This document shows, one piece after another, positions 42,645 through 44,443 of a stretch of DNA of 64,000 bases. The stretch lies in the NCBI GenBank assembly GCA_002280855.1, contig NCEU01000006.1, positions 38,090-102,089 of the forward strand, given 5' to 3'. Below the pieces are notes generated by a model. It was not told the origin of the DNA. It searched no databases and saw only the letters and a list, made by a program, of their open reading frames with translations. This DNA is from Sphingomonadales bacterium 32-65-25 (GTDB lineage: Bacteria; Pseudomonadota; Alphaproteobacteria; Sphingomonadales; Sphingomonadaceae). Numbering within the stretch: the first letter of the stretch is position 1; every line of letters starts with the position of its first letter. A program made the position numbers and the translations under genes.

Positions 42645-42722
42645 GGCGACTGTAGCTCAGCTGGTTAGAGCGCTGGTTTGTGGTACCAGAGGTCGCGGGT
42701 TCAAGCCCCGTCAGTCGCCCCA
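42645..42722 (+). tRNA. tRNA-His (GUG) with encoded G-1:C73 and CCA
   Basis: Acceptor GCGACTG/CAGTCGC, anticodon arm CTGGT-TTGTGGT-ACCAG, T loop TTCAAGC. Confidence 0.97.
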
Positions 42723-43267
42723 CCTGTTTTCCGCACTTCCCCACATGCGATTCTGGAACCGGCATTGCCGGCCGGATCGCTGCGATAATCATCGGCCTTG
42801 GCGTGCAGCACCACCGCCGCGCCATCAGCATCGAGCAGCGGCGTATCGCCATCGGCGAGGCGGAGACCGGGCAACAACAGGTTCATCTCTCCGATACCCT
42901 TTTCGGTCACGGCCAGATTGGGCAGATCGCCGGCATGGGCGCCCATTGGGTTATCCCGGCCATGCTGCTTGCCCGCCGGGTTGAAGTGCGGCCCGGCGCT
43001 GGTGAAATCCGGGCCAACGCAGCGGCCAACGGCGTGCAGGTGCATGGCATATTGTCCCGCCGGCAGCCCCTTGACCGTGGCGATCAGCTGCACGCCGTCG
43101 GTCATCTGCAGCAATTCCACTTCGCCCAGGCTGTTGCCGTCCGCCGTGAGCAGGCGGGTGGAGAGCATCAGCGATGGCGGCGCGCCGCCCACCCGGCCGA
43201 GGGATTCGGCCTTCGGCCCGCAGGCAGCGAGGGCGAGGAGCGGGATGATGAAAGCGGCGCGCTGCAT
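42701..43267 (-). CDS. sodC: Cu/Zn superoxide dismutase, lipoprotein
   Basis: Lipobox LAAC; ligands MHLH, GPHFNP, KQHG, HAGDLPNL, VLHA; GNAGSRIACG. Confidence 0.93.
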   Translation of the reverse strand: MQRAAFIIPLLALAACGPKAESLGRVGGAPPSLMLSTRLLTADGNSLGEVELLQMTDGVQLIATVKGLPAGQYAMHLHAVGRCVGPDFTSAGPHFNPAGKQHGRDNPMGAHAGDLPNLAVTEKGIGEMNLLLPGLRLADGDTPLLDADGAAVVLHAKADDYRSDPAGNAGSRIACGEVRKTGGATDGA

Positions 43268-43272
43268 GGGGG

Positions 43273-43785
43273 TTACTCCGATTGGTTCAGGCCATAATGG
43301 CTGACCAAACGATCAAGCGCCAGTTGCAGCACGAGTTTTCCCGCCCGCACCGGCCAACCCAGCGCGCGTTCGGCGGCTTCAAGCCCCTCGCCCTGGCAGA
43401 TCACCCGCCAGGCGATATCGGACAGGCCAGGGCCGCAGGCGGCAACCGCTGCCTCGAACCGGCGTTTGGCGGCGATCTGCCCCCCCGAAAGATCGGGCGG
43501 GCCGCCCTGCCCGCGCGCGGCTGCAGGCAGCGGATCCCAGCGCATCGTCACGCGCGGGCCCAATTGCGCATGGTAGAAATCGGCGCGCAGCCGTTCGCTT
43601 GCCAGCAGTTGCACCGGCGAGACATGGCCACGGCGCGCCAACCAGGCCAGCGGCGACTCGGCCAGATTCACCGTCACCCGGGCGCGATCGATGATATCGG
43701 GTGCCGGCAGGATGCGGGTGGCGAGCAGACGATTTTCGGTCGGCGGTGCGATGTCCGGGGTGATTTCCTGTGCATGGCGAGCCAT
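43273..43785 (-). CDS. DUF6456 protein (GafZ / GafA C-terminal-like, sigma4-like HTH)
   Basis: VTVNLAESPLAWLARRG, ERLRADF, RVTMRWD, GPGLSDIAWRVIC.GEGLEAAERALGWP.RAGKLVL.LALDRL; SD GGAG before ATG 43785. Confidence 0.8.
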   Translation of the reverse strand: MARHAQEITPDIAPPTENRLLATRILPAPDIIDRARVTVNLAESPLAWLARRGHVSPVQLLASERLRADFYHAQLGPRVTMRWDPLPAAARGQGGPPDLSGGQIAAKRRFEAAVAACGPGLSDIAWRVICQGEGLEAAERALGWPVRAGKLVLQLALDRLVSHYGLNQSE

Positions 43786-43853
43786 CGGCTTTTCTCCGTT
43801 GCGGCACGTTGATGATGGATTACCTCTTGCACAGGAGAGGGATTGTAGGACAG

Positions 43854-43874
43854 AAGTAACCAGAGAGGTTACTT
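43854..43874. promoter_or_regulatory. Perfect palindromic operator between the DUF6456 and XRE genes
   Basis: AAGTAACC-AGAGA-GGTTACTT, ending 5 nt before the XRE ATG. Confidence 0.7.
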
Positions 43875-43879
43875 GACCC

Positions 43880-44443
43880 ATGCTCACCCGTATCCGTGAC
43901 GTTCGAAAGGCGCGCGGCCTCACGCTGGCCGATGTTGCGGCCGCCTGCGATCCACCCACAACGCCGCAAACCATCGGGCGGCTGGAAACCGGCATGCGCA
44001 CCGTCTCGATCGACTGGCTGGAGCGCATCGCTGCCGCGATGGCGGTGCCGGCATCCAGCTTGGTCACCCTGCCCGATCGGGCGGACGTGCCGGTGGCGGC
44101 GCTGATCGGCAGCAATGGCGCCGATGCCCCCGATCGGCCACGCACGCTGCTGCCGCCGCAGCCGCAACCCGATCTGATCGGCCTGGTGGTGGAAACCGCT
44201 CAGGGCGATTATCGCAGCGGTGACGAACTTTGGGCGCAACGCCTAACCCCTGGCCAGTTCGGCCGCGCCATCAACCGCGATGTGCTGGCGCCGCGGCCCG
44301 CCGGCCGTTTTGCCTTTGGGCGCCTGATCGCCGTGGACGGCAGCCGCATCCAGCTGCTGCCCACAACGCCCGGCGCGCGCCAACAGGTGCTGGCTGAGGT
44401 GCCGTGGCTGGCGATGGTAACGATGCTGGTGCGACGGCCCTAG
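43880..44443 (+). CDS. XRE-family HTH regulator with degenerate S24-like C-terminal domain
   Basis: IRDVRKARGLTLADVA...TTPQTIGRLETGMR..SIDWLERIAAAM. Confidence 0.9.
   Translation: MLTRIRDVRKARGLTLADVAAACDPPTTPQTIGRLETGMRTVSIDWLERIAAAMAVPASSLVTLPDRADVPVAALIGSNGADAPDRPRTLLPPQPQPDLIGLVVETAQGDYRSGDELWAQRLTPGQFGRAINRDVLAPRPAGRFAFGRLIAVDGSRIQLLPTTPGARQQVLAEVPWLAMVTMLVRRP

Follow-up and report, generated by a model that had tools for sequence, protein, structure and literature searches.

The divergent gene pair and its products

A divergent pair of genes occupies positions 43273 to 44443 of the 64,000-nucleotide stretch analysed here (the window), which comes from a Sandarakinorhabdus genome (Sphingomonadales; 3.04 Mb, 12 contigs, rated 100% complete), and is proposed as a control switch for a gene transfer agent (GTA). 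The gene on the minus strand (43273-43785) encodes a 170-aa protein with a DUF6456 domain at residues 38-165, preceded by a short N-terminus of low confidence, and is treated here as a minimal gafZ-like gene; its open reading frame (ORF) starts at the ATG at 43785-43783, with a GGAG-type ribosome-binding site at 43791-43797. The gene on the plus strand (43880-44443) encodes a 187-aa XRE-type, cI/LexA-like repressor in which a linker joins a helix-turn-helix (HTH) at approximately residues 4-60 to an S24-like beta domain that has no catalytic dyad. Between the two start codons lies a control region of 94 bp (43786-43879) with three blocks conserved throughout the order. ORFs, Pfam domains and start codons all agree with the head-to-head arrangement across a 94-bp spacer that an earlier note on this DNA had described.

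The DUF6456 protein matched Pfam PF20057 over residues 38-165 with an E-value of 8.9e-44 (149.3 bits; cut-off 26.3). Primer sequences that Gozzi et al. give in their supplement served to retrieve the gafY, gafZ and rogA genes of Caulobacter, and the protein aligned with residues 109-241 of Caulobacter GafZ at 46% identity over 136 aa (E 3e-28), bearing out the kinship with GafZ that the note had suspected. Ahead of the domain there are about 108 residues in Caulobacter GafZ, 37 here and 14-37 in the sphingomonad relatives, the start codon being fixed by upstream stops in close relatives. Judged from these alignments, the protein is a truncated GafZ from which the N-terminal part of about 108 aa is gone. 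In Rhodobacter capsulatus GafA, the DNA-binding domain made up of residues 221-382 binds both the RcGTA promoter and the gafA promoter, and the omega-binding region and the DnaA-like domain are N-terminal of it (PMC9638019); from this order of modules and the domain match it follows that the sphingomonad protein keeps only the last module of GafA.

The AlphaFold model of the DUF6456 protein had a predicted local distance difference test score (pLDDT) of 73 overall and of 84-95 over the C-terminal helices. According to Foldseek, sigma region 4 domains were closest to the C-terminal helical bundle, with template modelling (TM) scores of 0.7-0.8 over about 60 residues and E-values of about 1; superposition of SigD4 gave a TM score of 0.80 and a root-mean-square deviation of 1.7 over 60 columns, at a Foldseek E-value of only about 0.9. 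KorA was also among the best structural matches, the matches among viral models were phage DUF6456 proteins (Roseobacter phage RDJL Phi 1, Rhodobacter phage RcRhea) and sigma-4 proteins, and no Q antiterminator was present in the top 50 structural matches from PDB or BFVD. A sequence search of solved structures returned nothing useful for this protein or for XRE. Thus, of the sigma4/Q-like HTH announced in the note, the likeness to sigma-4 stands with weak support and the likeness to Q does not, so that the term 'Q-like' is applicable solely to the published antiterminator function of GafZ (PMC11150451) and not to the fold.

A second, phage-borne relative of GafZ is present in the same genome. 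A cryptic prophage remnant on contig C11 (C11:141077-149826) contains an integrase, a portal, a protease, an HK97 capsid protein and a 592-aa tape-measure-like ORF, directly downstream of which a 186-aa protein is encoded with a sub-threshold DUF6456 match (E 2.8e-5).

The N-terminus of the XRE protein matched HTH_3/HTH_31 at E ~4e-9, and its AlphaFold model (pLDDT 89) consists of a five-helix HTH domain followed by a beta domain. The top Foldseek matches were 186 CI, lambda-186 hybrid repressors, lambda cI and C-domains of LexA (E 4e-6 to 1e-3), and Pfam Peptidase_S24 (S24) gave no match. The 47 positions that are invariant among 73 members of the XRE family include no Ser or Lys, and the linker consensus of the same 73 sequences, PVAAxLDxxGAxAP, lacks an Ala-Gly cleavage site. 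By its modelled fold, the protein is a pseudo-peptidase of the cI/LexA type whose self-cleavage residues have been lost, and autocleavage of the RecA-dependent type is unlikely, because there is neither a conserved Ser/Lys dyad nor an Ala-Gly in the linker.

RogA, the Caulobacter repressor, has been described as an HTH joined to an S24-like (LexA/cI-like) domain without catalytic residues (PMC9632790). BLASTP between XRE and RogA gave a marginal match in the C-domain (E 0.019), and hhalign aligned both collinearly over 175 columns at E 1.2e-3, with a probability of 19%. RogA matches Pfam Peptidase_S24 at 1e-17, whereas XRE does not, and no reciprocal match between the two was obtained in whole-genome searches. 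Regarding XRE as a counterpart of RogA therefore holds for the architecture of an HTH with a non-catalytic S24-like domain, as seen by fold, while the link in sequence is marginal; XRE is RogA-like in architecture and likely also in role, and orthology with RogA is not claimed.

Both genes behave as a unit. A full-length XRE homologue (52-98% identity) stands divergently next to the gene for the DUF6456 relative in 79 of 80 loci, which come from Sphingomonas, Sphingobium, Stakelama, Allosphingosinicella, Parasphingopyxis and others, and none of the other neighbours is retained outside Sandarakinorhabdus. The pairing is far beyond chance, and the pair is a unit because these loci keep both genes while the flanks change. 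In this genome the flanks are housekeeping genes: on one side sodC, tRNA-His, TamB and a Leu/Glu-type dehydrogenase, on the other FolC, AccD and TrpA. No capsid, terminase or integrase gene adjoins the pair, the note having seen none in the window. In-frame stops were detected in two gafZ homologues, at L017 4001-4408 (a Stakelama metagenome-assembled genome) and L053 4001-4402 (Sphingosinithalassobacter portus), which may be pseudogenes or assembly errors.

Conserved elements at the proposed switch and at GTA genes

Across 79 loci the blocks of the control region follow one another, in the direction of xre, as CTTGCCA, N12-13, TGTAGGA(A/C)AG, about 5 nt, AACC-N5-GGTT(A), 8-16 nt and ATG. The first block reads CTTGCAC here (43826-43832, plus strand) and CTTGCCA in most relatives; it keeps a fixed distance of 12-13 nt to the next block, falls also within the early gafZ leader and, to judge from conservation and spacing, is a candidate -35 of the xre promoter. 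The second block, TGTAGGACAG (CTGTCCTACA on the gafZ strand; 43844-43853), holds the candidate -10 (TACAAT) of the gafZ promoter. The third is a perfect palindrome, AAGTAACC-agaga-GGTTACTT (43854-43874), with the core TAACC-N5-GGTTA at 43857-43871, which is proposed as the operator of XRE and of which AACC-N5-GGTT is conserved across the related switch loci. A CtrA box was rejected for this palindrome, as its flanks are not TTAA and its spacing is N9 and not N7. A leaderless xre was also judged unlikely, since in relatives AGGAG is found 8-10 nt before the xre ATG and a -10-like block about 28 nt upstream.

A complete head-tail cluster of the RcGTA type is encoded on another contig of the same genome (C10:144.1-162.0 kb), in agreement with the note's suggestion that a distant GTA cluster might be under control of the pair. 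The cluster starts with TerS-like, TerL, portal, DUF6127, prohead protease and HK97 capsid genes, continues with an insert of 158-, 892- and 122-aa ORFs plus a Gp77-type adaptor, followed by connector, tail completion protein, tube, GTA-gp10 and a tape-measure-like protein, and ends with a fused NCTSP/TIM-barrel/DUF2460 protein, a hub (Gp84_N plus BR0599), a g14-like protein and a protein with Phage-tail_3 and Rcc01698_C domains. PF13547 (GTA_TIM) is absent from the genome, which is not evidence against a GTA, because the g15-like protein has Phage-tail_3 and Rcc01698_C and the TIM barrel is fused to g12. Twelve nucleotides past the capsid stop there is a hairpin with a T-tract, of 12 bp with 10 GC pairs, predicted to be a strong intrinsic terminator. 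Directly past this terminator, between capsid and connector, lies the insert of about 4.4 kb (L085 7140-11130, equivalent to C10:153139-157129), whose 158-, 892- and 122-aa ORFs had no Pfam or PHROG match, whose adaptor is of the Gp77 fibre-tail kind and which may be a head-fibre or spike module.

The exact core TAACC-N5-GGTTA occurs once in the 3.04-Mb genome, at the switch. When up to one mismatch was allowed, 12 sites were found, four of which are the switch, the cluster promoter, the terL-portal junction and a holin gene. At the cluster promoter the sequence runs ATAACC-aaata-GGCAC, N7, TTGACA, AGCG-TAACG-ctttt-GGTTA-TTAA, in which 17 bp separate a consensus -35 from TATTAA; one site is upstream of the -35 (7-8 bp before TTGACA), and a second, degenerate one lies 32 bp away over the spacer and -10. 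The same architecture was detected in 43 of 80 terL loci (Sandarakinorhabdus, Polymorphobacter, Novosphingobium, Sphingopyxis, Sphingomonas and others), where the palindrome is followed after 7-8 nt by TTGACA, (T/AG)CGTCACGCT and a GG(T/C)AC that overlaps a TACANA -10; this TACANA stands at the -10 position equivalent to the CCTACA element of gafZ. A one-mismatch operator, TAACC-ttttt-GGTTT, in the 19-nt gap between terL and portal (L085 14046-14060, C10:160045) could be a chance copy or an internal regulatory site.

The composite box of CCTACA plus half-sites has only three occurrences in the genome, before gafZ, before the gene of a GTA_holin_3TM protein (C3:149406-148993; PF11351, E 3e-29) and before a second terS-like gene of 158 aa located far from the GTA cluster (C8:198252-198728; PHROG 4044, E 3.5e-15). 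Upstream of the latter (region C8:198215-198728), CTGTCCTACAAC is followed after 10 nt by GGTTA-tat-TAACC directly before the ATG; the cluster's own first gene matched PHROG 4044 weakly (E 0.002). Of 80 holin loci, 24 have the arrangement CCTACA-N2-3-AACC-N5-GGTT directly before the holin gene; they belong to several genera and are the loci with the holin first. The AACC-N5-GGTT seen before many Sphingomonas holin genes was rejected as a site, as it belongs to the coding sequence of the preceding gene (…ANRIG*).

As a GTA-specific site, TGTAGGACAG was also rejected, since 11 copies were found against about 5 expected and 8 of them have no half-site pair nearby; a general -10-type element is more likely. 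Examples among the 11 sites of CTGTCCTACA are C2:125310, C6:123389, C8:209755, C3:1270 and C3:1560. Three of the copies have a CG(G/A)GC...CCTGTCATCATGG element in common downstream, and on C3 two copies stand in tandem, 290 bp apart. CTGTCCTACA may be a lineage-specific strong promoter element of the -10 type.

Phyletic distribution and the absence of GafY

Three complete genomes of the same family (G052, G074 and G116) carry a full-length XRE homologue and gave no match to DUF6456 at a threshold as loose as E 0.1. Two of the three still have AACC-N5-GGTT just upstream of the XRE gene, and for this reason the palindrome is assigned, as a putative operator, to XRE. The GTA promoter of G074 has kept the palindrome, as TTACC-N5-GGTAA, and TTGACA and has lost the CGTCACGCT block. 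Because of this loss, and because it is placed where the GafZ element sits in Caulobacter, the CGTCACGCT block of the spacer is the best candidate for a GafZ site. The XRE genes without gafZ (L269 in G052, L270 in G074, L272 in G116) may represent a repressor retained after loss of the activator; that of G052 faces an ArsR-like gene, with extra AACC-N4-GGTT repeats nearby, and that of G074 an oxidoreductase-like gene.

The distribution of the DUF6456 protein (E <= 1e-10) and of GTA g12 (a DUF2460 match) was compared in 121 genomes. Both were present in 41, DUF6456 only in 15, g12 only in 18 and neither in 47, corresponding to an odds ratio of about 7; the link of the pair to the GTA is therefore real and not absolute. 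Most of the genomes with g12 only belong to a single family (f8). No full-length XRE homologue was found in ten f8 genomes searched, and the TTGACA/CGTCACGCT promoter motif was absent in stretches from five genomes of this family; G018, G025, G031, G036, G045, G057, G066, G078, G087 and G049 have a fused GTA gene of about 800 aa with DUF2460, no DUF6456 and no XRE. The GTA of f8, if active, must be under different control. An occurrence of TAACCATGCAGGTTA in f8 was rejected, as it appears to be a gene start, apparently of rpsU. XRE and DUF6456 appear from these patterns to have been gained or lost largely together.

The note had seen no GafY equivalent adjacent to the pair, and GafY proved moreover undetectable in the whole genome. 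A search with Pfam Bac_DnaA_C (PF08299), to which Caulobacter GafY as a positive control gave 46 bits, matched DnaA alone in this genome, and tblastn with Caulobacter GafY returned nothing better than E 0.15. Among the 121 genomes of the order (47 genera), 116 had one PF08299 match (DnaA) and two had none, whereas a weak second match, below the cut-off, was present in three, leaving 118 of 121 without a second copy. By this domain search, the absence of GafY would be a property of the order and not of this locus. Genes of the GafZ type without adjacent GafY (265 of 759) were counted but not analysed by Gozzi et al. (PMC9632790).

Proposed circuit, alternatives and known systems

It is known that RogA represses gafYZ (PMC9632790) and that GafZ acts as an antiterminator whose binding element lies between -35 and -10 (PMC11150451). 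The reading of the note, a repressor/GafZ switch for a distant GTA, is supported by the GafZ homology, the cluster on C10 and the palindrome shared with its promoter, and we regard it as fairly probable that the pair is the control switch of the RcGTA-type GTA encoded on that contig, in a GafY-less variant of the Caulobacter circuit. On the observed gene identities, folds, synteny, motif positions and phyletic patterns a mechanism can be proposed, for which the assignment of proteins to sites, the sign of regulation and antitermination are what we infer. XRE would bind TAACC-N5-GGTTA, probably as a dimer. At the switch, its site over the gafZ -35 and just downstream of the presumed xre promoter would make it a repressor of gafZ and an autoregulator of xre, and XRE would also directly repress the GTA regulon at the cluster promoter, at the holin gene (site over the presumed transcription start) and at the terS-like gene (variant site). 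Once a signal removes the repressor, the regulon and gafZ would be transcribed, and the minimal GafZ, having only its sigma-4-like DNA-binding domain, would engage the cluster promoter, probably at CGTCACGCT between -35 and -10, and help RNA polymerase through the strong post-capsid terminator into the tail genes. The positions of the palindrome would fit repression, as it covers the start site (holin) or the -35 (gafZ), or brackets the -35 and covers the -10 (cluster).

Several observations weigh against this circuit. The cluster-promoter upstream site has its centre near -50, where activators more typically bind, and the site of the terS-like gene is an everted variant (GGTTA-N3-TAACC) and not the standard palindrome. 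The role given to CGTCACGCT has one GafZ-less genome as its basis. In a scan for terminators, 10 hairpins were found against 10.4 in shuffled sequence, so that the post-capsid hairpin alone is striking. Co-occurrence with the GTA is imperfect on both sides, as seen from the 15 genomes with DUF6456 and no DUF2460 match and the 18 with g12 and no DUF6456. The sequence was found in DNA metagenome runs only and in no RNA runs. Finally, the minimal GafZ lacks the part matching the omega-binding central region of GafA, and its action on RNA polymerase is therefore putative. For the full proposal, namely that a non-cleavable repressor of the cI fold sits on every GTA promoter (head-tail cluster, holin, terS-like gene and gafZ) and that a GafZ reduced to its sigma-4-like domain suffices both for its loading onto RNA polymerase at the promoter spacer and for suppression of termination, we would be tentative, and sooner doubt it than accept it.

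The main alternatives differ in which protein is placed on the palindrome and in what the minimal GafZ does. The palindrome could instead be bound by the GafZ-like protein, which like GafA would activate directly and autoregulate positively, with XRE controlling the switch only, through another contact. This would agree with the binding of the GafA C-domain (DUF6456) to its own and to the RcGTA promoter (PMC9638019), with the likewise palindromic nature of the Caulobacter GafZ element (PMC11150451), with the presence of the palindrome at every GTA promoter found here, that of gafZ included, and with its location upstream of the -35 at the cluster promoter, typical for activator sites; but two of the three DUF6456-less genomes of the same family retain AACC-N5-GGTT directly upstream of the XRE gene, one retains the palindrome at a GTA promoter, the gafZ palindrome occupies the -35 position, and at holin promoters of several genera the palindrome begins 2-3 nt past CCTACA and covers the presumed start, as a repressor site would, which makes this alternative improbable. 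It is unlikely to a lesser degree that the minimal GafZ is a plain sigma-4-like activator or sigma appropriator of GTA promoters without antitermination, which in Caulobacter would then depend on the GafZ N-terminus and on GafY, both missing here. Against this stand the consensus TTGACA and the TACANA -10 at 17 bp of the cluster promoter, with which an activator should be unneeded, the strong intrinsic terminator that separates capsid from tail genes and the block conserved between -35 and -10, as for the Caulobacter GafZ element (PMC11150451), whereas the presence of the C-terminal DNA-binding domain alone, the order-wide absence of GafY, the best fold matches with sigma region 4 and none with a Q protein, and gafZ and holin promoters without a recognisable -35 all speak for it.

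The pair could also be a domesticated phage switch with its main targets outside the GTA, for example in a stress response or in other operons, in which case the matches of the motif at GTA genes would be incidental. DUF6456 proteins are present in phages and in the cryptic prophage of this genome, XRE homologues adjoin unrelated genes (ArsR-like, oxidoreductase) in two genomes, and 15 of the 56 DUF6456-positive genomes have no DUF2460 match, as 18 GTA-positive genomes have no DUF6456. Against these, the places where the motif specifically recurs are the cluster promoter, the holin and the terS-like gene, and it is conserved there across genera, the family without the pair is also without the promoter motif in the stretches examined, and gafA homologues that co-evolve with the cluster were reported for 196 of 208 alphaproteobacteria with a GTA (PMC9765227). 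We consider this alternative very improbable.

The proposed GTA switch resembles the RogA/GafY-GafZ system of Caulobacter crescentus (Gozzi et al. 2022, PMC9632790; Tran and Le 2024, PMC11150451) in having a GafZ homologue with DUF6456 as regulator (46% identity over the domain), in a repressor made of an HTH and a non-catalytic S24-like domain, and in a distant RcGTA-type cluster with internal terminator(s) and a conserved element between -35 and -10. It differs from it in having no GafY in the genome or, in effect, in the order, in a GafZ whose N-terminal part of about 108 aa is gone, in a repressor gene divergently joined to gafZ, whereas rogA is unlinked in Caulobacter, and in a repressor from a different sequence family (no Pfam S24 match; hhalign probability 19%). 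The putative operator is found here at the cluster, holin and terS-like promoters as well, whereas in Caulobacter RogA had two chromatin immunoprecipitation (ChIP) peaks only and GafY serves the accessory promoters. With R. capsulatus GafA (Fogg 2019, PMC6363796; Sherlock and Fogg 2022, PMC9638019) the protein shares the C-terminal DNA-binding domain, but it has neither the N-terminal DnaA-like domain nor the central region that binds the omega subunit of RNA polymerase, and is paired with a repressor gene. The likeness to lambda cI, phage 186 CI and LexA extends from the two-domain fold (Foldseek E 4e-6 to 1e-3) to a gene divergent from a late-gene regulator and a palindromic operator with two sites at the main promoter about three helical turns apart, but XRE has no conserved Ser/Lys dyad and no Ala-Gly site in the linker.

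The gene family and its presence in sphingomonads have already been published, as the gafA (DUF6456) orthogroup that includes Sphingomonadales (Kogay and Zhaxybayeva 2022, PMC9765227), so that the locus is a variant of a known control system and not a new kind; the XRE partner, the absence of GafY, the minimal architecture and the shared operator are not described in the parts of that paper considered here, and a full-text literature search returned no published description of a conserved XRE partner, an order-wide absence of GafY, a minimal GafZ or a shared operator. Regulation of GTAs has been dissected in only two or three model species, in which GafA, or GafY plus GafZ, is required, and control of GTA genes in sphingomonads, which show the strongest selection on GTA genes (PMC9765227), has so far been undescribed. 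The locus offers a compact, testable circuit with a 21-bp operator, a 170-aa minimal GafZ and one clear internal terminator, and a natural experiment on which parts of GafA and GafZ are essential; if a lambda-like, GafY-free circuit were true, the omega-binding and DnaA-like modules of GafA/GafYZ would be dispensable for the core mechanism. The predicted regulon marker would also serve to locate dispersed accessory genes of the GTA, such as the holin and a second terS, in any sphingomonad genome.

Beside the pair, the sodC gene of a lipoprotein-type Cu/Zn superoxide dismutase (window positions 42701-43267, minus strand) begins 5 nt past the gafZ stop and may for this reason be co-transcribed with gafZ; it is a neighbour of gafZ within Sandarakinorhabdus only. 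The 3' end of its predicted ORF overlaps by 22 nt with tRNA-His (42646-42722, plus strand) on the opposite strand.

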